Below, in pieces: positions 4,731-50,393 of a DNA stretch of 64,000 bases; the first letter of the stretch is position 1; every line of letters starts with the position of its first letter. The notes beneath the pieces were generated by a model. That model ran no database searches. It worked only from the letters and a program-made list of their open reading frames with translations, and was not told the origin of the DNA. The position numbers and the translations under genes were made by a program. The DNA is from Candidatus Anaeroferrophillacea bacterium (GTDB lineage Bacteria > Desulfobacterota > Anaeroferrophillalia > Anaeroferrophillales > Anaeroferrophillaceae), in NCBI GenBank assembly GCA_016933675.1, contig JAFGAM010000014.1, positions 47,727 to 111,726 on the forward strand, read 5' to 3'.

Positions 4731-5081
4731 ATGCATGAATTGCCGGTGATCGAAGAAATCCTCGCGGTGGTCCTGACCCACGCCCACCGCCACGGGGTGA
4801 GCCGGGTGGTAACCATCAACCTGGAGGTAGGATCGTTCAGCGATCTCGAGGATGCATGGCTGCAGCGCTATTTCGACCACTGCAGCCGGGGCTCGGTGGC
4901 GGAAAACGCCCGCCTGGAACTCATCCGGGTGCCGGCAACGGGTACCTGCCGGCGGTGCAACCACGTTTTCACCCTCGCCGCCCCCGGCACCGACAAAACC
5001 GGCTGTCCCCTTTGCGGCGCCGTCGACATCGTCCTGGACGGCCGACGGGGTTACCACATCGCCAGCCTGGAGGCATTATGA
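4731..5081 (+). CDS. hypA: nickel-insertion metallochaperone HypA
   Basis: 116 aa. MHELPVIEEIL N-terminus and the C-terminal zinc knuckle CRRC...CPLCG are typical of HypA. Confidence 0.85.
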   Translation: MHELPVIEEILAVVLTHAHRHGVSRVVTINLEVGSFSDLEDAWLQRYFDHCSRGSVAENARLELIRVPATGTCRRCNHVFTLAAPGTDKTGCPLCGAVDIVLDGRRGYHIASLEAL

Positions 5082-5749
5082 AGCCCGGGATCAAGCTTAT
5101 CGAAGTGAAAGAGGATCTGTTTGCCGACAACCGCCGGGCGGCTGAAACGCTGCGCGCCCGGCTGCGCGCATCGCGTACCTTCCTGCTCAACCTCATGGCC
5201 TCGCCGGGAGCGGGCAAGACCAGCCTGATCATGCAGACCGTCGCTGCGCTGGCGGGAGAGCTGCGGCTCGGGGTCATCGAGGCGGATATCGACTCCATGA
5301 TCGATGCCGAAACAGTGGCCGCCGGCGGCATCCCGGCGCTGCAACTGCGCACCGGCGGCTTCTGTCACGTGGACGCGGTGATGGTGGGGAAGGCGCTGGC
5401 GGAGCTGCCGCTGAAGGATCTCGATCTGGTCATCCTGGAAAACGTCGGCAATCTGGTCTGTCCGGCGGAATTCGATACGGGTGCTTCGCGGAGCGCGATG
5501 ATCCTCAGCGTCCCGGAAGGGGACGACAAGCCGCTGAAGTACCCGCTGATGTTCTCGGTCTGCAACGCCCTGGTGGTCAACAAAACGGACTGGCTGGAGC
5601 TCTCCGACTTCAGCGTCGAACGGCTGACGGAACGGGTGCGGCGGCTGAACCCGGGGATGGAGTTATTTCCACTTTCCTGCCGCACGGGGGAAGGTATCGA
5701 GGCCTGGACCGACTGGCTGCGGCGGGAAGTAGCAGCGTTTCTCAATTGA
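5078..5749 (+). CDS. hypB: nickel-dependent GTPase HypB
   Basis: Start set at ATG 5078 (MKPGIKLIEVKEDL), which forms an ATGA overlap with the hypA stop. GAGKTS P-loop and ENVGNLVCPA motif. The ORF-track 5' extension (4856) overlaps hypA out of frame. Confidence 0.9.
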   Translation: MKPGIKLIEVKEDLFADNRRAAETLRARLRASRTFLLNLMASPGAGKTSLIMQTVAALAGELRLGVIEADIDSMIDAETVAAGGIPALQLRTGGFCHVDAVMVGKALAELPLKDLDLVILENVGNLVCPAEFDTGASRSAMILSVPEGDDKPLKYPLMFSVCNALVVNKTDWLELSDFSVERLTERVRRLNPGMELFPLSCRTGEGIEAWTDWLRREVAAFLN

Positions 5750-9697: not shown

Positions 9698-9772
9698 CAA
9701 AACCTCCATGCAAATTGGTCGGCAGCCGCTTTTCGAGGGACGAAACAACGCCCAAAACGCCCTCACCGCAGT

Positions 9773-10888
9773 TCAGGACCGCAACCAGGCCTGATCCACG
9801 TTATATCTGCCGCTGTCATCGCGAAACACCCCGCCGCCAAGTTCCATCTCCAGCAGGCGGGCACTCAGGGTGGCATGATCCCAGTCCAGCACCTCGATCA
9901 GGTCATCGACACTGCGCGGCCCGTCGGCCAGGATCGCCGCCAGGCGGCACTGCTCCGGGGTCGGCGCCGGCCGGCCACCGGCCGGCGGCACGGAAGCCGG
10001 CGCCGATGTCGACCAGCGGGGAAAGGCGGCGAAGATATCGTCGGCACGTTCCACCAGTTGCGCCCCTTCCTTCAGGAGCCAGTGGGTGCCCTGCACCGAC
10101 GGACTGCCGGGCAGCCCCGGGACGGCGAAGACCTCGCGTCCCTGATCGAGGGCGCAACGGGCGGTGATCAGGGTGCCACTTTTCCGCGACGCCTCCACCA
10201 CCACCACCCCGTCGGCCAGACCGCTGATGAGGCGGTTGCGCCGGGGAAAGTTGCCGGGTTCGGGCCGGGTGCCGAGGGGCAGTTCGCTGAGCACGGCGCC
10301 ATCGCGGGCGATATCATCCGCCAACCGGTGATGGCGGGCAGGATAGACGACATCGAGGCCCGAACCCATTACCGCCACGGTCAGACCGTTTTCCGCCAAG
10401 CAGCCGGCGTGGGCTTCGGCATCGATGCCGAGCGCCATGCCGCTGACCACCGCGACCCCGCGGCGCGCCAGTTCCCCGGCCAGACGAAAGGCGAACCGGC
10501 GACCGTGGGCAGTGGCCCGGCGGGAGCCGACCACCGCGATCACCGGCCGGTCGTCGGTCGGCAGGCGGCCTCTACAGTAAAGTATCGGCGGCGGATCGTA
10601 GATGTTGAACAGCCTTTCAGGATAGCGCTCATCCCCGAGGGGGATGAGTTCGAACCCCAGCCGAGTCGCCGTTTCACGTTCCCGGGCCACCGCGTCCCAG
10701 GCGGAGAACCCGGCAATCTCCCGGGCCACGGGCAGGCGAATGCCGGCCTTCTGGCACAGATCCTCGGGGGCGGCGGTCAATACCGTCCGCGGATCGGCAT
10801 ATGCCCGGCACAGGCGGGCACAGCCACGGGCACCCAGACCGGGTACCAGGGTCAGGGCCAACCAGATTTCAAGTAACGTCAGCGACAT
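9773..10888 (-). CDS. dprA: DNA processing protein DprA
   Basis: The ORF track gives 437 aa, but the first 66 codons lie in repeat copy R3. Start set at ATG 10888 (MSLTLLEIWLALTLVPGLG). Rossmann-like core GMALGIDAEAH...VVYPARH. Confidence 0.85.
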   Translation of the reverse strand: MSLTLLEIWLALTLVPGLGARGCARLCRAYADPRTVLTAAPEDLCQKAGIRLPVAREIAGFSAWDAVARERETATRLGFELIPLGDERYPERLFNIYDPPPILYCRGRLPTDDRPVIAVVGSRRATAHGRRFAFRLAGELARRGVAVVSGMALGIDAEAHAGCLAENGLTVAVMGSGLDVVYPARHHRLADDIARDGAVLSELPLGTRPEPGNFPRRNRLISGLADGVVVVEASRKSGTLITARCALDQGREVFAVPGLPGSPSVQGTHWLLKEGAQLVERADDIFAAFPRWSTSAPASVPPAGGRPAPTPEQCRLAAILADGPRSVDDLIEVLDWDHATLSARLLEMELGGGVFRDDSGRYNVDQAWLRS

Positions 10889-37760: not shown

Positions 37761-39542
37761 ATGGGCCTGGATTTCACGAAATTTGACGCCCCCAACATGA
37801 AGGACTGGCAGTTGGCGGCCCTGGCGGAAGAAACCCACATGAAGCCGATTCAGCAGGTTTCCGACGAGCTCGGCCTCGTTGGCGACGAGCTGATCCCGAT
37901 GGGCAAGTACGTCGCCAAGGTCGACTACATGAAGGTACTCGAGCGCCTCGGCGACCGGCCAGACGGCAAGTATGTCAACGTCACCGCCATCACCCCGACG
38001 CCGCTGGGCGAGGGGAAAACCACCACCTCGCTGGGTCTCGTCCAGGGTCTCGGCCTGATGGGCAAGAAGGTTGTTGGCGCCATTCGTCAACCCTCCGGCG
38101 GTCCGACCTTCAACATCAAGGGTTCCGCGGCCGGCGGCGGACTCGCTCAGACCATCCCGCTGACCCCGTTCTCGCTCGGCCTCACCGGTGACATTGACAA
38201 CATCATGAACGCCCACAACCTCATGATGGTCGCTCTCACCTCGCGCATGCAGCACGAGCAGAACAACACCGACGAGTTTCTCGCCAAGAAGGGGCTGAAG
38301 CGTCTCGACATCGACCCCAACCAGATCGAAGTCCGCTGGATCATGGACTTCTGCGCCCAGGCGCTGCGCAACATCGTCATCGGCCTTGGCGGCCGGCTCG
38401 ACGGCATGGTGATGGAATCCGGCTTCGCCATCGCGGTCTCCTCCGAGATCATGGCGATCCTGGCGGTGGCCAAGGACCTGAAAGACCTGCGTGAACGGAT
38501 GGGCAGGATCATCGTCGCCTACTCCAAATCCGGCAAGCCGGTAACCACCGAGGATCTCGATGTCGCCGGCGCCATGACCGCGTGGATGGTCAAGGCCCTG
38601 AACCCGAATCTGCTGCAGTCCCTCGAAGGCCAGCCGATGTTCGTCCATGCCGGCCCCTTCGCCAACATCGCCATCGGCCAGTCCTCCATCATCGCCGACC
38701 GCATCGGCCTGAAGCTGAGCGACTACCTGGTCACCGAGTCCGGCTTCGGCGCCGATATCGGCTTCGAGAAATTCTGGAACCTCAAGTGCCGCTTCTCCGG
38801 TCTGACCCCCAACTGCTCGGTCATCGTCGCCACTGTCCGTGCTCTGAAGATGCACGGCGGCGGCCCCGAGGTGGTACCCGGCCGGCCGCTGGCCGCCGAA
38901 TATACCCAGAAGAATGTCGGCCTGGTGGAAGCCGGCTGCTCCAACCTCATCGCTCACATCGAGACGGTGAAAAAGGCCGGCACCAATCCGGTGGTCTGCA
39001 TCAACAGCTTCTTCACCGATACCGATGAAGAAATTGCCAAGGTCAAGGAACTGGCCGAGGCCGCTGGCGCCCGCTGCGCCGTCTCCAAGCATTGGCAGTA
39101 CGGCGGTGAAGGAGCCCAGGAACTGTGCCATGCGGTCATCGAGGCGTGCGAGGAACCGACCAACTTCAAGTTCCTCTACGAGGACAGCACGCCGTTGAAG
39201 AAGCGCATCGAATTGCTGGCCACCGAGGTCTACGGTGCCGACGGTGCTTCCTTCAGCCCCGAAGCGATGAAGAAGATCGAGATGATCGATAACGATCCCG
39301 AGCTCTCCAAGCTCGGTACCTGCATGGTCAAGACGCACCTGTCCCTGTCCCACGACCCGACCCTCAAGGGCCGGCCCAAGGGCTTCATCTTCCCGGTGCG
39401 CGATGTCCTCATCTACCAGGGCGCCGGCTTCTGCGTACCGTTGGGCGGCACCATCAAACTGATGCCCGGTACGGCATCCGACCCGGCCTACCGCCGCATC
39501 GACGTCGATACGGCAACCGGCCAGGTGAAGGGCCTGTTCTAA
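37761..39542 (+). CDS. fhs: formate-tetrahydrofolate ligase
   Basis: 593 aa with [18 protein letters not shown]-loop and a GAGGAGG RBS. Confidence 0.95.
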
Positions 39543-39759
39543 GCTGTTCAGGGAGACAGAAGATAGAATTCAGGAGTCAGAATGTGATACGATGGAGGAT
39601 TACGAGGGTGACCGCTCCGATCTCCTGGCGACTGGATGCTTCCGGCAATGCGGAAGGTGGTTACGATTCCCGGACAACTATCATGATATTCTTGTAGTCG
39701 TTACACTCTTTTCAATCCCCACCCGGGGGGGGGCGTTATCCCCCCGGGTGGATTCTCGC

Positions 39760-39813
39760 CCAAAATGAAAACTCTGAAGCGGCATCGCGCCCCTTCAGGT
39801 TTTTCATTTTTGG
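39760..39813 (+). terminator. hairpin with U-rich 3' arm downstream of fhs
   Basis: CCAAAATGAAAACTCTGAAG ... CTTCAGGTTTTTCATTTTTGG. A GC-rich hairpin CCACCCGGGGGG/CCCCCCGGGTGG lies just upstream at 39719-39751. Confidence 0.5.
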
Positions 39814-39860
39814 CAAAAGCCGCTTAAAACATTATTTCACCATTTTGAGATTTATTTCCC

Positions 39861-41846
39861 ATGCCGGAACCGGTCCACCGCGTTACCTTCATGCCCGATG
39901 ACATCACCGTCGACGTCTTCCGTCACGGGGAGACGCTGCTGCGGGTGGCGATGGCCGCCGGGGTGCATATCAACGCCTCCTGCGGCGGCAACGGCACCTG
40001 TGGCAAGTGCAAAGTAATCGTCGACCGCGGCCTGGTGGAGAGCAAGCCGTCGGCAAAGCTGTCCGACGAGCAGTGGGAGCAGGGCTACCGCCTCGCCTGT
40101 CTGACGAAGGTCATGGGCGATCTGGTGGTCACCATTCCGCCGGAATCCCGGATCGACAATGCCGCCCTCAAGGCGCGCACCGGCGGCAAACGCCATATCC
40201 TCAAGGCGAGGGATCTGAACACCCTGGTCCAGGGGCTGACGGTGGACCCGGCGGTGTGGAAACTCTACCTCGAATTGCCGCCGCCCACCCCCGATGACAA
40301 CCTCAGCGACCTCGGCCGCCTGATGCGGGAATTGAAGCGCCGGCACGGGCTCGACGGCATCTCCACCGACTTCCGCCTGCTGACCCGGATCGCCCGACTG
40401 CTGCGTGACGCCGACTGGCAGGTCACCGTCACCCTGGTCTACAATCCCAAGGGACTCAAACTCATCGACGTCGAACCCGGCGACACCACCGAACGCAATT
40501 TCTCCATCATCATCGATGTCGGCACCACCACCGTCAAAGGGCAGTTGCTGGACCTTCGGGAGTGCCGGGTAGCGGCGGCCGGAAAAGACTGCGATGATGA
40601 TGAAGAGGCCAACCTGCTGGCCGAGGACGCGCGCTACAACTCCCAGGTACGTTTCGGCGAGGACGTTATCAGCCGCATCGTCCATTCCCAGAAAGGCGAT
40701 GGTCTCCGGGAGCTGCAGCAGGCCGTGGTCGGCGATATCAACGAGATCATTCGCGCCCTGCTCGGGCAGTCAGGCATCGACCGGGAGAACCTCTCCCACA
40801 TGGTGGTAGCCGGCAACACCACCATGACACAGTTGCTGCTGGGCATCGACCCGAAGTACATCCGCGAGGATCCCTACGTTCCAACGGCCAACTTCTTCCC
40901 GCCGGTGCGGGGCATCGATATCGGTCTGAACCTGCCCGAGCATGTCCACCTGTACACCTTCCCGCTGGTCTCCTCCTACGTCGGCGGCGACATCGTCGCC
41001 GGCATCCTCGGCTCGGGCATCTTCCAGCGCGAGGACCTGACCCTGTTCATCGACGTCGGCACCAACGGCGAGATCGTTCTGGGCAACTGCGACTGGCTGG
41101 TGTGTACCTCCTGCTCCGCCGGCCCGGCCTTCGAAGGCGGCGGCGTCAAGCACGGCATGCGCGCCACCCGCGGCGCCATCGAGCAGGTACGCATCAACCC
41201 CGAGACCTTCGAGCCGATGGTGATCACCATCGGCAACCGCAAACCGCTCGGCATCTGCGGCTCCGGTCTGATCGACGCGGTGGCGGAGATGCTGATCACC
41301 GGAATCGTCGAACCCAACGGCAAGTTCAATCGCGGGCTCGGCACCGACCGGATTCGCGAGACCGAAGGCGCCTGGGAATATCTCCTGGTACCGGCGGCGG
41401 AAGCCGACGGCGTCGGCGATATCGTCATCACCGAAGGCGACCTGGACAACCTTATCCGCACCAAGGGTGCGATCTATGCCGGTTGCCGCATCCTGCTGGA
41501 AAGTGTCGGCATGACCTTCGCGGAGTTGGATCGGCTGATCATCGCCGGCGGTTTCGGCCAGTTCATCAACCTGGAGCGGGCGGTCACCATCGGCCTGCTG
41601 CCGGAGATACCGGTAGATAAATTCATGTTCGTCGGCAACGGCGCCCTGTTGGGCGCCCGCCTGGTTTCATTCTCGCGGGAGATGATGAGGGACGCACGCC
41701 GGGTATCCGACATGATGACCAATATCGAACTGGCTAACAACATGCGTTTCATGGACGAATACGTGGCGGCGCTGTTCCTGCCCCATACCGATACCAACGC
41801 GTTTCCCGAAGTGATGAAGCTGATCCACCCGGATCCGGCAACCTGA
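39861..41846 (+). CDS. acsV: corrinoid activation/regeneration protein (RACo/AcsV; 2Fe-2S ferredoxin plus ASKHA ATPase)
   Basis: 661 aa. N-terminal plant-type ferredoxin CGGNGTCGKCKV with HRVTFMPDDITVDV. Large ASKHA-like body (IIDVGTTTV, FIDVGTNGE). No Shine-Dalgarno is visible before the ATG. Confidence 0.85.
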   Translation: MPEPVHRVTFMPDDITVDVFRHGETLLRVAMAAGVHINASCGGNGTCGKCKVIVDRGLVESKPSAKLSDEQWEQGYRLACLTKVMGDLVVTIPPESRIDNAALKARTGGKRHILKARDLNTLVQGLTVDPAVWKLYLELPPPTPDDNLSDLGRLMRELKRRHGLDGISTDFRLLTRIARLLRDADWQVTVTLVYNPKGLKLIDVEPGDTTERNFSIIIDVGTTTVKGQLLDLRECRVAAAGKDCDDDEEANLLAEDARYNSQVRFGEDVISRIVHSQKGDGLRELQQAVVGDINEIIRALLGQSGIDRENLSHMVVAGNTTMTQLLLGIDPKYIREDPYVPTANFFPPVRGIDIGLNLPEHVHLYTFPLVSSYVGGDIVAGILGSGIFQREDLTLFIDVGTNGEIVLGNCDWLVCTSCSAGPAFEGGGVKHGMRATRGAIEQVRINPETFEPMVITIGNRKPLGICGSGLIDAVAEMLITGIVEPNGKFNRGLGTDRIRETEGAWEYLLVPAAEADGVGDIVITEGDLDNLIRTKGAIYAGCRILLESVGMTFAELDRLIIAGGFGQFINLERAVTIGLLPEIPVDKFMFVGNGALLGARLVSFSREMMRDARRVSDMMTNIELANNMRFMDEYVAALFLPHTDTNAFPEVMKLIHPDPAT

Positions 41847-42006
41847 ACGAACATCGGCCCGGGCAGCGCCCACATGTCCGCTGGTCGGAAAACCACGCGG
41901 AACACGGCCGCCACCGGCAGAGACCACCAATTCGCACCGCGCCACGCGGGACGCGGCGCCCGCCGGGGAAACCGGTGGACGGCAGGAGAAGGAGTTGTGC
42001 GGAAAC

Positions 42007-42768
42007 ATGGGTAAATCAATCGCAGTGGCCGGCAAGGGAGGAACAGGCAAAACCACCCTCACCGGCATGGTGCTCCGCTACCTGGCGGAGAAAGTAGAAC
42101 GGCCGGTGCTGGCGGTTGACGCCGACGCCAACGCCAACCTCAGCGAGGTCCTCGGGGTCGAGGTGCCGGGCACCATCGGCGACCTGCGCGAAGGAATGAA
42201 AACCGAAGTGCCGGCGGGGATGACCAAGGAAGCCTACATGGAATACCACATCCAGCAGATCCTGGTCGAGACCGGAACCTGGGATCTGCTGGTCATGGGC
42301 CGCCCCGAAGGCGCCGGCTGCTACTGCTACGCCAACGCTCTGTGTAAAAAGTTCATCGACTTCCTGATCAAGGAGTACGATTACGTCGTGGTCGACAACG
42401 AGGCCGGGATGGAACACCTCAGCCGCTTGCTGACCAAGGATCTCGACCTGCTGCTGGTGGTCTCCGACCCGAGCCTCAGGGGTATCCGTACCGCCGGCCG
42501 CATCCGCGACCTAATCGATGAGTTGAAGCTGAACATCAAAAAGGTCTTGCTGCTGATCAACCGCGTGCCCGGCGGCAAACTGGAGCCCGAGGCCGCACGG
42601 CTGATCACCGAACTGGGGCTCGAACTCGGCGGCGTTATCCCCGAGGATCCGGATATCGCCCGTTTCGATCGGGAGGGAAAACCGACCGTGCAGGTGCCGG
42701 CGGAGGCGGTTTCCTACCACGCTCTCCGGCAGCTTATGGAAGCCATTTTTCCCTTGTATTTGGCCTGA
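42007..42768 (+). CDS. cooC: CooC/AcsF-type nickel-insertion ATPase
   Basis: Start at ATG 42007 (MGKSIAVAGKGGTGKTT, deviant Walker A) after AGGAGAAGGAG. CYC motif GAGCYCYAN. Confidence 0.9.
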   Translation: MGKSIAVAGKGGTGKTTLTGMVLRYLAEKVERPVLAVDADANANLSEVLGVEVPGTIGDLREGMKTEVPAGMTKEAYMEYHIQQILVETGTWDLLVMGRPEGAGCYCYANALCKKFIDFLIKEYDYVVVDNEAGMEHLSRLLTKDLDLLLVVSDPSLRGIRTAGRIRDLIDELKLNIKKVLLLINRVPGGKLEPEAARLITELGLELGGVIPEDPDIARFDREGKPTVQVPAEAVSYHALRQLMEAIFPLYLA

Positions 42769-42878
42769 AAATCAACTATAAGCCAGCGGTGAACGTTATG
42801 CAGTATACAATCCCCCGTACGTTCCGTTTCAGTAACAGATAACCGAGAAACAAACCCCACGGAAAGGAGAGAGCGAAC

Positions 42879-43823
42879 ATGGCATTTTCAGCAGTGTCGG
42901 AAAAATACTCCGGCAAAATGAGGGCGTTGGAAATCGGTGTCGGGGACAAGAAGGCAGTCGTCGGCGGCCAGGCGAGCATGCCGTTCTGCAGCTTCGACAG
43001 CGACCTGCCCAACAAACCAATAATCGCCATGGAGGTGTACGATGTGGTCGATCCGGAGTGGCCGGCGGCAGTCGTCGATCCCTTCAAGGATGTCATCAGC
43101 GATCCGGTGGCCTGGGCGAAGAAGAATGTCGAGGAATACGGCGCGAAAATGATCTGCCTGCAGTTGGCCTCTACCGATCCCAACGGTGAGAACCGGGACG
43201 CGGCCTACGCCGCCGACCTGACCAAAAAGGTCGCGGCTGCCATCTCCGTACCGCTGATGGTCTGGGGCAGCGGCAACGTCGAGAAAGACGCCGAAGTTCT
43301 GCCGAAGATCTGCGAGGCCTGTGAGGGCATGAACCTGCTCATCGGCCCGGCGGTGGAGGAAAACTACAAGAAGATCGCCGCCGCCGCCCTGGGTTACGGT
43401 CACGCCGTCGTCTCCCAGAGCCCCATCGACGTCAACATGGCCAAGCAGATGAACATCCTCATCAGCAACCTCGGCCTGCCCCTGGAAAAGATCATCATGG
43501 AACCCTCTACCGGTGCCCTGGGCTATGGCGTCGAGTACACCTATTCGGTGATGGAGCGCATCTCCCTGGCCGCCCTGTCGCAGAACGACGACAAGATGCA
43601 GTGCCCGATTATCAGCGATCTCGGCAAGGAATGCTGGAAGGCCCGCGAGGTCAAGCTCACCGACAAGGAAGAGCCCTCCTTCGGCCCTGACATGGAGAAG
43701 CGCGGCGTCCTGTGGGAAGCCATGACCGCCGTCGACATGCTGCTGAGCGGCACCAACCTGCTCATCATGCGCAACCCGCATGCCGTCAAGCTCACTGAAG
43801 AGATCATTGACGAGATGATGTAA
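42879..43823 (+). CDS. acsD: corrinoid iron-sulfur protein small subunit (AcsD/CdhD)
   Basis: 314 aa TIM-barrel-type sequence in acs context, with a GGAGAG RBS. Confidence 0.85.
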   Translation: MAFSAVSEKYSGKMRALEIGVGDKKAVVGGQASMPFCSFDSDLPNKPIIAMEVYDVVDPEWPAAVVDPFKDVISDPVAWAKKNVEEYGAKMICLQLASTDPNGENRDAAYAADLTKKVAAAISVPLMVWGSGNVEKDAEVLPKICEACEGMNLLIGPAVEENYKKIAAAALGYGHAVVSQSPIDVNMAKQMNILISNLGLPLEKIIMEPSTGALGYGVEYTYSVMERISLAALSQNDDKMQCPIISDLGKECWKAREVKLTDKEEPSFGPDMEKRGVLWEAMTAVDMLLSGTNLLIMRNPHAVKLTEEIIDEMM

Positions 43824-43888
43824 TCAGCGGTATCCAGTCACACCTATTCATATTGGAGACACGAAGTCTCCCGGATGGAGGTAACAGA

Positions 43889-46105
43889 ATGTCCAAGCTT
43901 ATTATCAGTTCCGCTATCCGCGGTGCCCATGCAATCGTCGATCGCGTCGAGGGCAAGCTCAACGCCGCGCTGGAAAAGTACGGTTACGACAAGGAAGTCA
44001 AACTGCCCAATACCGGTTATTACCTGCCGGTGATCTACGGCATGAGCGGCTTCAAGGTCGAGAAGCTCGGCGACATGCCGCACGTCATCAAGATGTGCCG
44101 CGACCTGCTGCCGGAAGTGCCGGCCGAGAACGCTTGGTTGCCTTATCTTGGCCCGGGGCTCGATGCCGGTATGGCCACCTGTTTCGCCTACGACCTCGAA
44201 GAGGCGATGAAGTATCTCGATGATCCCTGCCCCTACCTGCCGATGAAGGAAGACCCGGAAGACACCGATACCGACATCTGGCTGGGTGCCGCCGACGACA
44301 TCATTCTGCGCAAGCGCGGGGTTGAATTCGTTGACGGTTCCGCGCCCGGTTTCGCCGCCATCGTCGGCGCCGCCAAGGATGTGGAAACCGCTGTTGCCAT
44401 CGCCAAGGAGCTGCAGGAAAAAAGCATCTACGTCTTCATGGCCGGCGCCAACGACAAGGGCGTCAGCTTCGCCGAGCAGTTGAAGGAAGCCGGCGTGCAG
44501 CTGGGCTGGAACACCCGCCTGGTGCCGTTCGGCAAGGACACCTCAGCCGCCATCCACGCCCTGGGCTTCGCCACCCGTGCCGCCCTGACCTTCGGTGGCA
44601 TCAAACCCGGAGACTTCTCCGGCAACCTGATGTACAACAAAAACCGCGTGTTCGCCTTCGTGCTGGCGCTCGATACGGTTGACGACGAGAAATACGCCGC
44701 CGCCGCCGGGGCCATCAACTGGGGCTTCCCGACCATCGCCGATACCGATATTCCCGAGGTACTGCCCACCGGTATCTGTACCTACGAGCACGTGGTCTCC
44801 AACATTCCGCAGGAAGAGATCGTCACCAAGGCCATCGAGGTCCGCGGCCTGAAGATTCAGATTACCAAGATCGATATTCCGGGATCCTACGGTCCGGCCT
44901 TCGAGGGTGAGCGGATCAAGAAGGACGCCATGCATGTCGAGCTCGGCGGGCCGAAGTCGATGGGCTTCGAGTTCGCCTATTCCAAGCCCCTTGACCAGGT
45001 CGAGGACGGCAAGTTCACCGTTATCGGCCCGGATCTGGATGACGTCGAAGCCGGCGGTCTGCTGCCCGTCGGTATCTGGATCGAGCTGGCTGGCCGCAAG
45101 TTCCAGGAAGACTTCGAACCGATCCTCGAGCGCCAGTGCCACCACCTGCTGAACGGCGCCGAGGGTGTGCTGCACATCGGTCAGCGCGACATTGTCTGGA
45201 TGCGTATTTCCAAAAAAGCGTACGAGTCAGGCTTCCGGCTGAAGCATTTCGGCACCATCCTGCACGCCAAGATGCACAATGAGTTCGGCGCCATCGTCGA
45301 CAAGGTCCAGGTGACCGTGTTCACCAATCAGGCCGATGTCGAGAAGCACCTGGCCGTCGCCCGCAAGACCTGGTCGGAGCGAGACAACCGCCTCGCCGAC
45401 ATGATCGACGAAACCACCGATACCTACTATTCCTGCACCCTGTGCCAGTCCTTCGCCCCGACCCACGTCTGCGTGGTCACCCCGGAGCGGCCGGGCCTGT
45501 GCGGAGCTTACAACTGGCTTGACTGCCGGGCATCCTACGAGATCAACCCGACGGGTCCGAACCAGCCGATCCCCAAGGGTGACGTCATCGACGAACGCCT
45601 TGGTCAGTGGAAGGGCGTCGACGCCTTCGTCGGGCCGGCTTCCGGCAACGCCTTCGAAGCCTTTTCGGCGTACTCCATCATGGAAAGCCCGATGACTTCC
45701 TGCGGTTGCTTCGAGGCGATCGTTTCCTGCCTCTTCGGCGCCAATGCCATCATGGTGGTCGACCGCGACTACACCGGCGAAACCCCCTGCGGGATGCCCT
45801 TTTCGACCCTCGCCGGCACCGTCGGCGGCGGGTTACAGACCCCCGGATTCGTTGGTATTTCCAAGTTCTACATCGGCAGCAAGAAGTTCGTCTCCGCCGA
45901 AGGCGGCATCAAGCGCCTGGCCTGGCTGCCGAAGGCGCTGAAAGAGCAGCTGAAGGATATGATCGACAAGCGCGGCGAAGAGATCGGCGTGCCGGATCTC
46001 TATAGCAAGATCGCCACCGAAGAAAACGCGACCACCGAAGAAGAGGTCATCGCGTTCATGAGTGAAGTAGGACATCCGGCGCTTGAAATGCCGCCGCTGA
46101 TGTAG
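43889..46105 (+). CDS. acsB: acetyl-CoA synthase catalytic subunit (AcsB)
   Basis: Start at ATG 43889 (MSKLIISSAIRGAH) after GGAGG. A-cluster ligands CTLCQSFAPTHVCVVTPERPGLCG and the Cys-Gly-Cys motif SCGCFE. Confidence 0.95.
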   Translation: MSKLIISSAIRGAHAIVDRVEGKLNAALEKYGYDKEVKLPNTGYYLPVIYGMSGFKVEKLGDMPHVIKMCRDLLPEVPAENAWLPYLGPGLDAGMATCFAYDLEEAMKYLDDPCPYLPMKEDPEDTDTDIWLGAADDIILRKRGVEFVDGSAPGFAAIVGAAKDVETAVAIAKELQEKSIYVFMAGANDKGVSFAEQLKEAGVQLGWNTRLVPFGKDTSAAIHALGFATRAALTFGGIKPGDFSGNLMYNKNRVFAFVLALDTVDDEKYAAAAGAINWGFPTIADTDIPEVLPTGICTYEHVVSNIPQEEIVTKAIEVRGLKIQITKIDIPGSYGPAFEGERIKKDAMHVELGGPKSMGFEFAYSKPLDQVEDGKFTVIGPDLDDVEAGGLLPVGIWIELAGRKFQEDFEPILERQCHHLLNGAEGVLHIGQRDIVWMRISKKAYESGFRLKHFGTILHAKMHNEFGAIVDKVQVTVFTNQADVEKHLAVARKTWSERDNRLADMIDETTDTYYSCTLCQSFAPTHVCVVTPERPGLCGAYNWLDCRASYEINPTGPNQPIPKGDVIDERLGQWKGVDAFVGPASGNAFEAFSAYSIMESPMTSCGCFEAIVSCLFGANAIMVVDRDYTGETPCGMPFSTLAGTVGGGLQTPGFVGISKFYIGSKKFVSAEGGIKRLAWLPKALKEQLKDMIDKRGEEIGVPDLYSKIATEENATTEEEVIAFMSEVGHPALEMPPLM

Positions 46106-46145
46106 CAACGTATATATACGGTACAACCTGGGATAAGCATACGTA

Positions 46146-46290
46146 GTCTGGTACAAGGGAATCCCGTGGAAATCGGGAGCGGACCCGCCGCTGTGATCGG
46201 GGACGAAAGCCGCATGCAGGCCACTGAATGGAGCCATTCGGGAAGGCGCGGCCGGTAGGACGATCCGTCAGCCAGAAGACCTGACCAGAC
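46146..46290 (+). promoter_or_regulatory. cobalamin (B12) riboswitch aptamer
   Basis: P1 GTCTGGT (46146-46152) pairs with ACCAGAC (46284-46290). AAGGGAA at 46155-46161, GTGGAAATCGGG, CCCGCCGCTGT at 46184-46194, GCCACTG at 46220-46226, GGGAAGGC at 46240-46247, and B12 box AGCCAGAAGACCTG at 46270-46283. Confidence 0.85.
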
Positions 46291-46365
46291 ACAGAAACCT
46301 CTTCTCTCTTCGCGGTTTTCAGGGGAGTGGGGGGCAGCAATGATTTCCTGAAAGGAGATAGGTGA

Positions 46366-47712
46366 ATGGGACTCACTGGTATCCAGATTTTCAAATTGCT
46401 CCCCAAGACCAACTGTAAGGAGTGCGGACAGCCGACATGTCTGGCTTTTGCCATGCAGCTGGCGGCGGGTAAAGCCGAACTGAGCAAGTGCCCGTACGTC
46501 TCTGATGAAGCCAAGGCGCAGCTGAGTGAAGCTTCCGCACCCCCGATCCGCGGGGTGGTTATCGGCACCGGTGACAATGCGGTCAAGGTGGGTGAAGAGC
46601 TGGTCATGTACCGGCATGAAAAGACCTTCATCAACCCCACCGCCATTGCCGTCGCGATTACCGACGCCATGGACGATGCCGAGGTCGATGCCAAGATCAA
46701 CAACCTGAACACCGTGACCTTCGAGCGCGTGGGTCTCACCCTCGAGCCGAACCTGCTCGCGGTAGTCAATGCCAGCGGCGACGCCGGCAAATTCGAAGCC
46801 CTGGTGAAGAAGGCCATGGGCGCCACCGAGAAGGGCCTCATCCTCTGCAGTGACAACCTCGACGCTCTGGAAGCCGGCGCCAAGGCCGCCAAGGGCCGAA
46901 AAGCATTACTCTACGCCGCCACCGCCGACAACGCCGACAAGGTGGCCACCATCGCCGCCGCCAACGAGGCTTCCGTGGTCGCCAAAGGCGCTTCCATCGA
47001 AGAGGTGTCAAATTTCACCAAGACCATCGCCGATGCCGGCGTGAAGGAAATCGTTCTCGATACCGGCGCCCGGAGCATCAAGCAGGTCTTCTACGACAAC
47101 ACCATGGTTCGTCGTGCGGCCCTGAAGTCCAAGAACCGCGAAGTCGGCTATCCGACCATCAACCTGGTCTTCGAGATGACCGACGATCCGTACAAGGAAG
47201 CCATGTACGCCGCCATCGCCATCGCCAAGTACGGCGGCATCGTGGTAATGAGCGACGTCGACAAGGAGCGGATGCTCCCGCTGCTCGTCCAGCGCCTGAA
47301 CATCTATACCGACCCGCAGCGGCCGATGGTCGTTGACCAGGGCATCTACCCGATCAACAACCCGGGTCCGGATTCGCCGGTGATCATCACCACCAACTTT
47401 GCCCTGACCTACTTCATCGTCAGTGCCGAGGTCGAAGCCAGTCGTGTTCCCACCTGGTTGCTGATCATGGACGTCGAGGGTATGTCCGTTCTGACCGCGT
47501 GGTCCGCCGGCAAGTTCGTCGCCGACGCCATGGCGCCGTTCGTCGTCAAGTCGGGCATCACCGACAAGGTCAACCACAAGAAGATCATCATTCCGGGTTA
47601 CGTGGCCCAGCTCTCCGGTGAATTCCAGGAAGAGCTCGGTGACGAGTGGGAGGTCATCATCGGTACCCGCGAGGCATCCGACCTGCCGGCCTTCCTGAAG
47701 GAATACAAATAA
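46366..47712 (+). CDS. acsC: corrinoid iron-sulfur protein large subunit (AcsC/CdhE)
   Basis: N-terminal 4Fe-4S motif CKECGQPTCLAFAMQLAAGKAELSKCP. 448 aa with an AAGGAG RBS. Confidence 0.9.
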   Translation: MGLTGIQIFKLLPKTNCKECGQPTCLAFAMQLAAGKAELSKCPYVSDEAKAQLSEASAPPIRGVVIGTGDNAVKVGEELVMYRHEKTFINPTAIAVAITDAMDDAEVDAKINNLNTVTFERVGLTLEPNLLAVVNASGDAGKFEALVKKAMGATEKGLILCSDNLDALEAGAKAAKGRKALLYAATADNADKVATIAAANEASVVAKGASIEEVSNFTKTIADAGVKEIVLDTGARSIKQVFYDNTMVRRAALKSKNREVGYPTINLVFEMTDDPYKEAMYAAIAIAKYGGIVVMSDVDKERMLPLLVQRLNIYTDPQRPMVVDQGIYPINNPGPDSPVIITTNFALTYFIVSAEVEASRVPTWLLIMDVEGMSVLTAWSAGKFVADAMAPFVVKSGITDKVNHKKIIIPGYVAQLSGEFQEELGDEWEVIIGTREASDLPAFLKEYK

Positions 47713-47729
47713 CCGCGACGAGTAGTGTT

Positions 47730-47766
47730 GACAGGAGCAGGCGACCCGCCGGCTCCTGTCTTTTTA
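47730..47766 (+). terminator. intrinsic terminator between acsC and acsE
   Basis: GACAGGAGC ... GCTCCTGTC followed by TTTTT. Confidence 0.6.
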
Positions 47767-47818
47767 CCATCTCAATTGTGTAAAAAGAGGTTATACCTCG
47801 TAGATTGGAGGGATAAAG

Positions 47819-48748
47819 ATGGCAAAGGTACTTACCATCGCTGAAAGCATCAACATCATGTCCAAGACCATCGGACCGGCAATCAAGGAACGTGATCCGA
47901 AGCCGGTGCAGAAGATGGCCAGGGAGCAGGAGGAACTTGGCGCCGATTACCAGGATCTCAACCTCGGACCGGCGCGCAAGGCCGGCGACGAGATGATGGC
48001 CTGGCTGGTGAAGACAATCAACGAGGTTTCCAAACTGCCCCTGGCGCTGGACTCCACCAATCACGTCGCCATCGAGGCCGGCCTCAAGGCCGCCCGCGAT
48101 CCGGAGAGCTGCATCGTCAACTCCATCTCCGCCCAGCCCGAAAGCCTGAACACCCGCATGCCGATGGTCAAGAAGTACGGCTGTGAGTTCGTCGCCCTGA
48201 CCCTGAGCGAGGAAGGCATTCCCCGGGACGTAAACGAGCGTGGCATGTGTGCCGCCGAGATCTACAACAAGGCGCTGGAGTTTGATGTTCCGGCCGAGAA
48301 GATGTGGATTGACCCCATCGTCCTGCCGGTCAGCGTGGACCCCGGCCAGGTGGCCTCCTTTCTTGAGTTCCTGCCGCTTATTCCCGACTTCGCGCCGGGC
48401 GCCAAGTCAACCTGCGGTCTGTCCAACATCTCCAACGGCTCCCCGAACGAGCTGCGCCACTACCTGAACCGCGGCTACCAGGCGATGCACAAGTATCTGG
48501 GCATCTACTCCTCCATCGTTGACGCCTACGATGCCGAGATGATCGCCCTGTGTAATGGGAAGATTCCCGCGGTAGATGAGCTGACCAAGAAGATGATGGA
48601 AGATCAGGACGTCGACGAGTCCTCCCTCTCCACCGAGCTGAAGGTCTACTACCGCAGCATCAAGTGCCTCAAGGGCGAAGTCCTCTACTCCCACTCCTGG
48701 ATCGATGATCTGGTGGGTGATTACGACAAGAGCTGGTACAAGAAGTAA
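47819..48748 (+). CDS. acsE: methyltetrahydrofolate:corrinoid/iron-sulfur protein methyltransferase
   Basis: 309 aa pterin-binding (DHPS-like) sequence IAESINIMSKTI...LNLGP...LALDSTN, with a GGAGGG RBS. Confidence 0.9.
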   Translation: MAKVLTIAESINIMSKTIGPAIKERDPKPVQKMAREQEELGADYQDLNLGPARKAGDEMMAWLVKTINEVSKLPLALDSTNHVAIEAGLKAARDPESCIVNSISAQPESLNTRMPMVKKYGCEFVALTLSEEGIPRDVNERGMCAAEIYNKALEFDVPAEKMWIDPIVLPVSVDPGQVASFLEFLPLIPDFAPGAKSTCGLSNISNGSPNELRHYLNRGYQAMHKYLGIYSSIVDAYDAEMIALCNGKIPAVDELTKKMMEDQDVDESSLSTELKVYYRSIKCLKGEVLYSHSWIDDLVGDYDKSWYKK

Positions 48749-50317: not shown

Positions 50318-50393
50318 TGGTGGAGCTGAGGGGGATCGAACCCCTGACCTCATGACTGCCAGTCATGCGCTCTCCCAGCTGAGCTACAGCCCC
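50318..50393 (-). tRNA. tRNA-Ala (anticodon GGC)
   Basis: The reverse complement GGGGCTGTAGCTCAGCTGGGAGAGCGCATGACTGGCAGTCATGAGGTCAGGGGTTCGATCCCCCTCAGCTCCACCA folds as a cloverleaf. G3:U70 identity pair, anticodon loop CTGGCAG, and an encoded CCA end. Confidence 0.95.

Follow-up and report, generated by a model that had tools for sequence, protein, structure and literature searches.

Why would a gene for a corrinoid-binding protein be placed behind an RNA that senses corrinoids? The question is raised by a 64,000-nucleotide (nt) stretch of DNA from Candidatus Anaeroferrophillacea bacterium (contig JAFGAM010000014.1, here called the window), in which an intercistronic element of approximately 235 nt separates acsB, the gene for acetyl-CoA synthase, from acsC, the gene for the corrinoid iron-sulfur protein's corrinoid-binding subunit. 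In the Wood-Ljungdahl pathway this protein carries the methyl group, and within the acetyl-CoA synthase machinery no subunit other than AcsC binds a corrinoid. An earlier note on this DNA, made from the letters alone, had described the element as a cobalamin riboswitch lying inside the acs cluster directly before the corrinoid-protein gene. The flanking genes are indeed acsB (stop codon at 46103–46105) and acsC (ATG at 46366), with a gap of 260 nt between them, and the element is a cobalamin riboswitch of Rfam family RF00174 by the aptamer features checked. On balance, the reading favoured here, by a modest margin, is a functional, long-type corrinoid riboswitch between acsB and acsC that would act as an OFF switch on AcsC translation, in the manner of btuB.

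Identity of the aptamer

The RF00174 match was found by Rfam cmscan at 46132–46303 on the forward strand, and scores 98.5 bits (E = 2.3e-23), where the gathering threshold is 31.5, a value well outside chance; the alignment spans model positions 1–189 of 189, the P6 accessory region included. It is the sole riboswitch match within the 64-kb window. Direct reading located every motif that the earlier note had listed, at the positions it had given, and the conserved core blocks, including GCCACUG and the B12 box (AGCCAGAAGACCUG as RNA), can all be read in the sequence and align to the RF00174 consensus. The long architecture with a P6 accessory region goes with adenosyl-cobamide-responsive switches, and the aptamer of the window probably binds an adenosyl-type cobamide. 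Lower-ligand selectivity is spread over the aptamer and is not readable from sequence (Kennedy et al., 2022; PMC9600662). The ligand may also be a particular corrinoid form, as one of the three readings of the earlier note has it, the other two being an ON switch and a tuning of the AcsC:AcsB stoichiometry.

Distribution and conservation

The acsC loci collected for comparison comprised 80 from a set with one genome per species, 80 from metagenomes, and 13 contigs chosen by protein search along a gradient of AcsC identity. In nearly all of these loci acsB directly precedes acsC, and the median acsB–acsC gap in the first 156 loci surveyed is 104 nt. The survey of gaps in related genomes, which the earlier note had proposed, revealed the same element in the same gap of 13 further contigs, all with an AcsC at least 79% identical to that of the window; every locus with this degree of identity and with upstream sequence available carries the riboswitch there. 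RF00174 was matched with 61–100 bits in loci L001, L002, L003, L081, L161, L162, L163, L164, L165, L166, L168 and L169. The lowest score of the set (61 bits) belongs to the copy in L165, which is truncated, and L173 was included by its near-identity to L162 and its motifs, not by Rfam. Riboswitch-bearing gaps measure approximately 240–370 nt among clade members.

Positives among the 72 loci scanned in full by Rfam were confined to this clade. RF00174 was negative at the 58 other acsC loci scanned in full, in which AcsC is at most 70% identical to that of the window, and in the remaining loci at this level of identity the gaps were too short or the motifs were missing. Loci L170–L172, with an AcsC identity of 66–70%, have gaps of 21–62 nt and no RF00174 match. 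Locus L002, which carries the element, belongs to Candidatus Tharpella aukensis of the candidate phylum Tharpellota, whose members are described as mesophilic degraders of fatty acids and aromatic compounds in hydrothermal sediments (PMC9213671).

The element has been kept while G+C content shifts from 59% in the window to 46–50% in its relatives. In an RNAalifold alignment of 13 members, compensatory (two-sided) changes preserve 14 of the 41 predicted pairs, located in P1, P4 and the P6 extension; the P1 columns display CG/UG/UA and GC/AU exchanges across members. This pattern of substitution indicates that the aptamer is under structural selection.

The gaps in L002 and L003 are longer than the others, at 370 and 320 nt versus approximately 240–260 nt, owing to 70–130 extra nt between the acsB stop codon and the riboswitch. 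No forward-strand promoter or terminator was detected in these extra stretches (approximately 1996–2130 in L002 and 2681–2760 in L003). In addition, one clade member has a second cobalamin riboswitch just downstream of acsE (L164, 3982–4168; L165, 2667–2853), scoring 121 and 116 bits. The setting of the second riboswitch (L165, 2590–3035) includes an intrinsic terminator between it and acsE and a TTGACA-like promoter, and the riboswitch ends in a terminator of its own, CCCCGGGUCGAAUUAUUUUCGAUACCGGGGAUUUUUUU. It precedes a gene for a protein of approximately 100 amino acids that starts with MKEGYI, and its platform closely resembles that of the mutA-1 riboswitch of Desulfobulbus propionicus.

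The expression platform

Two diverged versions of the expression platform were found, one in subgroup A (the window, L161, L162, L173 and L163) and one in subgroup B (the remaining members). Both have the same order of parts: the P1 3′ strand, a short linker, a pyrimidine tract with CCUC, a CGYGG loop and a G tract with GGGG, followed by a variable linker, the invariant AAAGGAGA, a spacer of 8–10 nt and AUG. In every member the pyrimidine tract pairs with the G tract to give a hairpin, which has 12 base pairs (bp) in the window (46298–46310 with 46321–46333) and whose core was predicted independently by RNAalifold. This hairpin and its loop, which the earlier note had not seen, constitute the conserved platform. 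The hairpin (46298–46333) was identified as P13, with its loop (46311–46320) as L13, because it is positioned directly after P1, as in characterised riboswitches, because the geometry of L5 and L13 matches that of the mutationally validated kissing pair of Alkalihalobacillus halodurans, and because two terminator-type riboswitches, one downstream of acsE in L165 and the other D. propionicus mutA-1, are built alike, with pyrimidines in the 5′ strand, YGG within the loop and purines in the 3′ strand.

The consensus of L5 is UCCCG, and in A. halodurans the validated pairing is between L5 GCCCG and L13 UGGC, with one bulged C (PMC10653944). Among the sequences compared here, L5 ACCCG is found with L13 YGGU in five (subgroup A; as UGGGU in L162 and L173) and L5 GCCCG with L13 YGGC in nine (subgroup B). 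The two loops are complementary in 14 of 14 sequences, the closing pair being swapped between G–C and A–U on both sides from one subgroup to the other. In register, 95.8% of cells pair, versus at most 62.5% in slid registers, a comparison that contains four distinct rows only. A kissing loop between L5 and L13 is, on these sequences, well motivated but not proven.

Several other candidates for the platform were rejected. The stem that the earlier note had proposed between TTTTCAGG (46316–46323) and CCTGAAAG (46347–46354) does exist in the window; its conservation extends to the closest relative, L161, and it is absent from the other 11 members and has a p-value of 0.20 against shuffles. It was therefore not taken for the conserved platform, although it may serve in the window alone as an anti-sequestor. 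The G tract was considered as L13 (UGGGG kissing CCCG), but the CGYGG loop was preferred, since the G tract makes up the 3′ side of a hairpin that all members conserve and only the loop has a nucleotide that co-varies with position 1 of L5. A pairing between the B12 box and the pyrimidine tract (UCUUCU with AGAAGA) was seen by sequence inspection in the window and L161 only. A model in which a three-codon mini-open reading frame (mini-ORF) is coupled to acsC was likewise set aside, the mini-ORF being absent in 11 of the 13 platforms compared. It reads AUG AAU UCC UGA in L161, and its stop codon in the window lies just before the acsC Shine-Dalgarno (SD) sequence. The mini-ORF is probably not a core part of the riboswitch and may be what is left of the beginning of a gene once under the ancestral riboswitch. 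A hairpin over the start codon (46361–46377) was not retained as a part of the riboswitch, since AUG-enclosing hairpins are found in 70% of 158 riboswitch-less acsC loci. Start-codon hairpins are somewhat stronger in the riboswitch clade, with a median of −4.6 versus −1.9 kcal/mol, and pair varied spacer sequences against codons 2–4; they may be a general feature that tunes acsC translation.

Level of control and proposed mechanism

No terminator-like site was found on the forward strand of the window between 45600 and 46700, which includes the region after acsB, nor in the same gap of L002, L003 and L162. The intrinsic terminator after P13 that characterises the transcriptional type (mutA, metE) was thus not found in these regions. 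Because no terminator was found, the element is most likely an intercistronic riboswitch on a polycistronic mRNA, with control exerted on translation. An internal promoter was also sought: no promoter-like (sigma-70) site was found on the forward strand of the gap in the window, L002, L003 and L162, by a consensus that may not fit this lineage. In most members P1 starts approximately 20–45 nt past the acsB stop codon.

As an OFF switch, the aptamer (46146–46290) would bind an adenosyl-type cobamide, and AcsC synthesis would respond to the free cobamide pool. Binding would let L5 (ACCCG, 46183–46187) kiss L13 (CGGU, 46313–46316) and so hold P13 (46298–46333) in place. Once P13 is locked, its G-rich 3′ strand would be kept from the linker, and AUUUCCU (46343–46349) could fold onto AGGAGAU (46353–46359), the output being at translation initiation, at the SD sequence (46354–46357) and the AUG (46366). 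Without ligand, the P13 3′ strand and the linker (about 46316–46326 with 46344–46354) would form an anti-sequestor, for which the stem of the earlier note would be extended to 46317–46326 with 46344–46353. Apoprotein would accordingly go up when cobamide is scarce and the level of loaded protein would stay steady; the rationale is that loaded enzyme should scale with total apoprotein multiplied by free cofactor, so that more apoprotein would offset scarcity. A like logic is supposed for the repressing riboswitches before the B12-dependent methylmalonyl-CoA mutase.

The hairpin over the ribosome-binding site (RBS) and the anti-sequestor that such a platform needs are both present in the window, and are weaker in L161. 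With P13 enforced, the SD sequence of the window is approximately 92–95% paired (unpaired probability 0.05–0.08). The proposed mechanism follows the btuB paradigm as given in PMC10653944, in which a kissing loop stabilises P13, which in turn promotes an RBS hairpin.

Weighing of the alternatives

The earlier note had assumed that cobalamin riboswitches control only cobamide synthesis, uptake or B12-independent isozymes, and had found it paradoxical that a cofactor should turn off the protein that binds it. The premise is outdated: four catalogued riboswitches upstream of meaB-mutB-mutA, in D. propionicus (two), Selenomonas sputigena and Veillonella parvula, are classed as “Corrinoid-dependent isoenzyme”, their product being the adenosylcobalamin (AdoCbl)-dependent methylmalonyl-CoA mutase (Kennedy et al., 2022; PMC9600662, Table S1). 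The V. parvula switch is a model “promiscuous” switch and represses in a reporter (PMC9600662). Repression by a cofactor of its own dependent enzyme therefore has a measured precedent, and the supposed paradox provides no evidence for an ON switch. According to PMC10653944, a 2023 paper from the laboratory that made this catalogue, known corrinoid riboswitches all repress save one activator, upstream of cobT.

Several observations weigh against the OFF switch as drawn. Neither the hairpin that hides the SD sequence nor the anti-sequestor is conserved: both stand out in just two members, the window and L161, the hairpin of L162 and L173 is another one (AUUUACC with GGUGAAU), and both features are absent in L163 and in all eight subgroup B members. 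Composition-matched shuffles do as well as the real sequences in pairing the P13 3′ strand with the linker (p = 0.07–0.87; 0.20 in the window), and the covariation in the kissing loop is a single event, equalled by 69 of 500 shuffles. At plentiful cobamide, an OFF switch would leave acetyl-CoA synthase to be made without its corrinoid partner, which is awkward unless repression is partial. Moreover, the P13 duplex, at −11 to −17 kcal/mol by nearest-neighbour energies, is stable in many registers without ligand, so a simple model in which P13 either forms or does not form is not borne out. Masking of single P13 strands, soft penalties and Boltzmann sampling gave no consistent change in SD accessibility, as slipped registers of this low-complexity helix evade the penalty. 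Competition between secondary structures may, in these models, not be the whole mechanism.

A translational ON switch built from the same aptamer and kissing loop appears less probable. Cobamide would then lock the pyrimidine tract (46298–46310) into P13 and free the acsC RBS, so that AcsC would be made only with its cofactor available; in the ligand-free state the tract would pair with the SD region (UCUCU with GGAGA, ACCU with AGGU) and block initiation. Four subgroup A members were folded without constraint (L173 was not included), and in three of them, the window, L161 and L162, the platform has this helix as its minimum-energy fold, nearly isoenergetic with the P13 fold at −24.9 versus −24.7, −26.1 versus −24.2 and −23.5 versus −22.5 kcal/mol, respectively. 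In subgroup B, however, the complementarity comes to no more than about 5 bp, every alternative being far less stable than P13, and in none of 13 sequences do the P13 5′ strand and the initiation region match each other better than in shuffles of equal composition (p = 0.14–0.65). The parts needed for an ON switch (CCUC, L13, GGGG and the SD sequence) are conserved in all members and the linker needed for an OFF switch is the least conserved part, but a pyrimidine-rich P13 5′ strand is generic and also present in terminator-type OFF switches, and G46361A in L163 and L173 breaks the ACCU:AGGU portion of the helix while a different local hairpin is kept instead. In the window, the SD sequence would still be hidden by the local hairpin once P13 forms. 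The placement of the riboswitch ahead of a single corrinoid-binding subunit, not at the head of the operon, fits a matching of apoprotein to cofactor; the eut, pdu and similar B12-dependent pathways are induced by B12 through other mechanisms, which was also counted for ON. The geometry of the kissing loop is that of the one known activator, yet this is the single natural activating corrinoid switch known, and the measured precedents before corrinoid-dependent enzymes repress. The OFF switch is favoured over ON because the prior, the precedent and the SD hairpin of the window outweigh the functional appeal of ON.

With the aptamer taken as real, an output other than ligand-gated access to the SD sequence is rather unlikely. 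Such an output could be cobamide-dependent Rho termination or RNase processing between the two cistrons, a structured and mostly constitutive spacer by which the AcsC:AcsB ratio is set, or the leader of an independent acsC–acsE transcript from a promoter beyond the recognition of the scans. No alternative pairing is statistically supported and P13 is predicted to form in any ligand state, as these possibilities would allow; the pyrimidine-rich, G-poor tract may resemble a Rho loading site, sigma-70 consensus scans may not suit this lineage, and the 70–130 extra nt before the aptamer in L002 and L003 could hold a promoter. Against these possibilities stand the short distance from the acsB stop codon to P1 in most members and the lack of a terminator after acsB, and the invariant SD sequence, which lies 8–10 nt upstream of the AUG and, in subgroup B, near P13, fits translational control. 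The binding core, L5 and L13 have stayed under purifying selection down to 79% AcsC identity and across a 10-point shift in G+C content, and their retention across that divergence argues for a ligand-dependent function.

Genomic context

The coordinates of the riboswitch and of the acs genes are given in Table 1. If regulation is polar, acsE, which lies downstream of acsC in the same direction, would probably be affected as well. No cobamide synthesis or uptake genes were found within the 64-kb window. Neighbouring genes include those for an electron-transfer flavoprotein, a thiolase, type IV pili and chaperones, a setting that would fit a fatty-acid degrader running the acetyl-CoA pathway oxidatively.

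Table 1. Positions in the window of the riboswitch, its expression platform and the genes of the acs cluster.
Feature	Position	Strand	Basis or remark
Cobalamin riboswitch aptamer, long form with P6 accessory region	46132–46303	+	RF00174
P1 5′ strand GTCTGGT (RNA GUCUGGU)	46146–46152	+	Pairs with 46284–46290
AAGGGAA block	46155–46161	+	Direct reading
Core block GTGGAAATCGGG	46166–46177	+	Direct reading
L5 loop ACCCG, aptamer half of the proposed kissing loop	46183–46187	+	Rfam alignment
Core block CCCGCCGCTGT	46184–46194	+	Direct reading
GCCACTG block	46220–46226	+	Direct reading
Core block GGGAAGGC	46240–46247	+	Direct reading
B12 box AGCCAGAAGACCTG	46270–46283	+	Direct reading, RF00174 alignment
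P1 3′ strand ACCAGAC	46284–46290	+	Pairs with 46146–46152
P13 5′ strand, pyrimidine tract CCUCUUCUCUCUU	46298–46310	+	CCUC invariant in 13 of 13 aligned members
L13 loop CGCGGUUUUC	46311–46320	+	Proposed kissing nucleotides CGGU, 46313–46316
P13 3′ strand, G-rich tract AGGGGAGUGGGGG	46321–46333	+	GGGG invariant in all members
Three-codon mini-ORF AUG AUU UCC UGA	46340–46351	+	6 nt past the G tract; window and L161 only
Local SD-hiding hairpin AUUUCCU-GAA-AGGAGAU	46343–46359	+	Centroid fold; seen with P13 formed
SD region AAAGGAGA	46351–46358	+	GGAG at 46354–46357; 8 nt before ATG; invariant in all members
fhs	37761–39542	+	
acsV/RACo	39861–41846	+	
cooC	41995–42768	+	
acsD	42879–43823	+	
acsB, acetyl-CoA synthase alpha/beta subunit; exact start codon uncertain	43853–46105	+	NF040764, 1028 bits; Pfam CODH_A_N, CdhC, ACS_CODH_B_C
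acsC, gene under proposed riboswitch control	46366–47712	+	PRK04165, 600 bits; Pfam FeS and CdhD
acsE, methyltetrahydrofolate:corrinoid protein methyltransferase	47819–48748	+	PRK07535, 213 bits; Pfam Pterin_bind

No CO dehydrogenase catalytic subunit gene (cooS/acsA) is adjacent to the acs cluster (fhs-acsV-cooC-acsD-acsB-acsC-acsE; 37761–48748), which is flanked by unrelated genes: on the upstream side one like those for CCA-adding enzymes or poly(A) polymerases, on the downstream side one for a GNAT acetyltransferase. A perfect 12-nt palindrome, CGTATATATACG (46109–46120), is located upstream of P1, 4 nt past the stop codon of acsB; no relative has it, and it could be a protein-binding site or a product of chance. 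Downstream of the operon, a tRNA-Ala gene with anticodon GGC lies on the reverse strand (50318–50393), followed on the same strand by a strong terminator-like hairpin (50308–50280), and L162 has the same tRNA in the same position (9733–9805). A gene on the forward strand at 4856–5749 encodes a GTPase of the CobW/HypB/UreG family, which includes nickel and cobalt metal chaperones.

Significance

The RNA class itself is already known, as are cobalamin riboswitches before cobamide-dependent enzymes. What is new for this class is the target, the corrinoid-binding subunit of the Wood-Ljungdahl corrinoid iron-sulfur protein, together with the position between two cistrons, on a platform that lacks a terminator, and the occurrence in a clade that is narrow and uncultured. 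No report of riboswitch control of the Wood-Ljungdahl corrinoid-binding subunit was found in the searchable literature, by a search that was incomplete. For the cells that use it, the corrinoid iron-sulfur protein is probably the greatest sink of cobamide, and the riboswitch would link flux through an ancient carbon pathway to vitamin supply in an uncultured, deep-branching lineage whose relatives include Candidatus Tharpellota. The acs locus would also be the second enzyme family, besides mutA, in which a cobalamin riboswitch governs the user of the cofactor and not its supply. We know of no experimental explanation, by anyone, for the logic of cobalamin riboswitches on cofactor users, and the element, being compact, intercistronic and available with two diverged platforms, offers a convenient test case of how kissing-loop docking is converted into translational control.

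If the riboswitch simply represses, it is an incremental extension of the regulon. If it were an ON switch, it would be the first activating corrinoid riboswitch to act on translation, a translational counterpart of A. halodurans cobT, and the first demonstrated case of one that turns on a corrinoid-dependent enzyme in cis; it would also place the Wood-Ljungdahl pathway, a central carbon pathway, under direct RNA control by vitamin supply.

Comparison with known systems

The element is similar to the riboswitch of the Escherichia coli btuB type in its aptamer consensus, B12 box, P6 region and UCCCG-type L5, in its lack of a terminator, and in a P13 hairpin directly after P1 with a loop able to kiss L5; in the window there is also a separate hairpin over the SD sequence. 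Unlike the btuB type, it lies between two cistrons and not in a 5′ leader, its target is a corrinoid-dependent protein and not a transporter, and its own relatives do not conserve the SD hairpin and the anti-sequestor.

With the mutA riboswitches it shares a controlled gene whose product needs the cofactor, and one of their hosts belongs to the same broad Desulfobacterota-like group. Likeness is closest to D. propionicus mutA-1, which has L5 GCCCG and a P13 with a pyrimidine 5′ strand and a purine 3′ strand, very similar to the present one. The mutA riboswitches are found in 5′ leaders with intrinsic terminators and act on transcription, as the two D. propionicus entries are annotated in the catalogue (PMC9600662). 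Their target is an AdoCbl-dependent mutase, whereas acsC codes for a corrinoid protein that acts in methyl transfer in the Wood-Ljungdahl pathway. Repression by the V. parvula switch has been shown, whereas for the present switch it is the favoured prediction.

The A. halodurans cobT switch (PMC10653944) has the same kissing geometry (GCCCG/UGGC with a bulged C, compared with GCCCG/YGGC in subgroup B and ACCCG/CGGU in the window), and in both systems stabilisation of P13 would be the signal transmitted. It differs in acting by anti-termination, in responding to cobinamide and in having a biosynthesis gene as its target; here there is no terminator and no mutually exclusive structure was demonstrable. 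The molybdenum cofactor (Moco) riboswitch (PMC2408646) provides a parallel outside the corrinoid class, as a coenzyme riboswitch found before genes for coenzyme-using enzymes in addition to synthesis and transport genes. Its RNA fold and ligand are unrelated to those of the acsC riboswitch, and what the two share is their regulatory logic.

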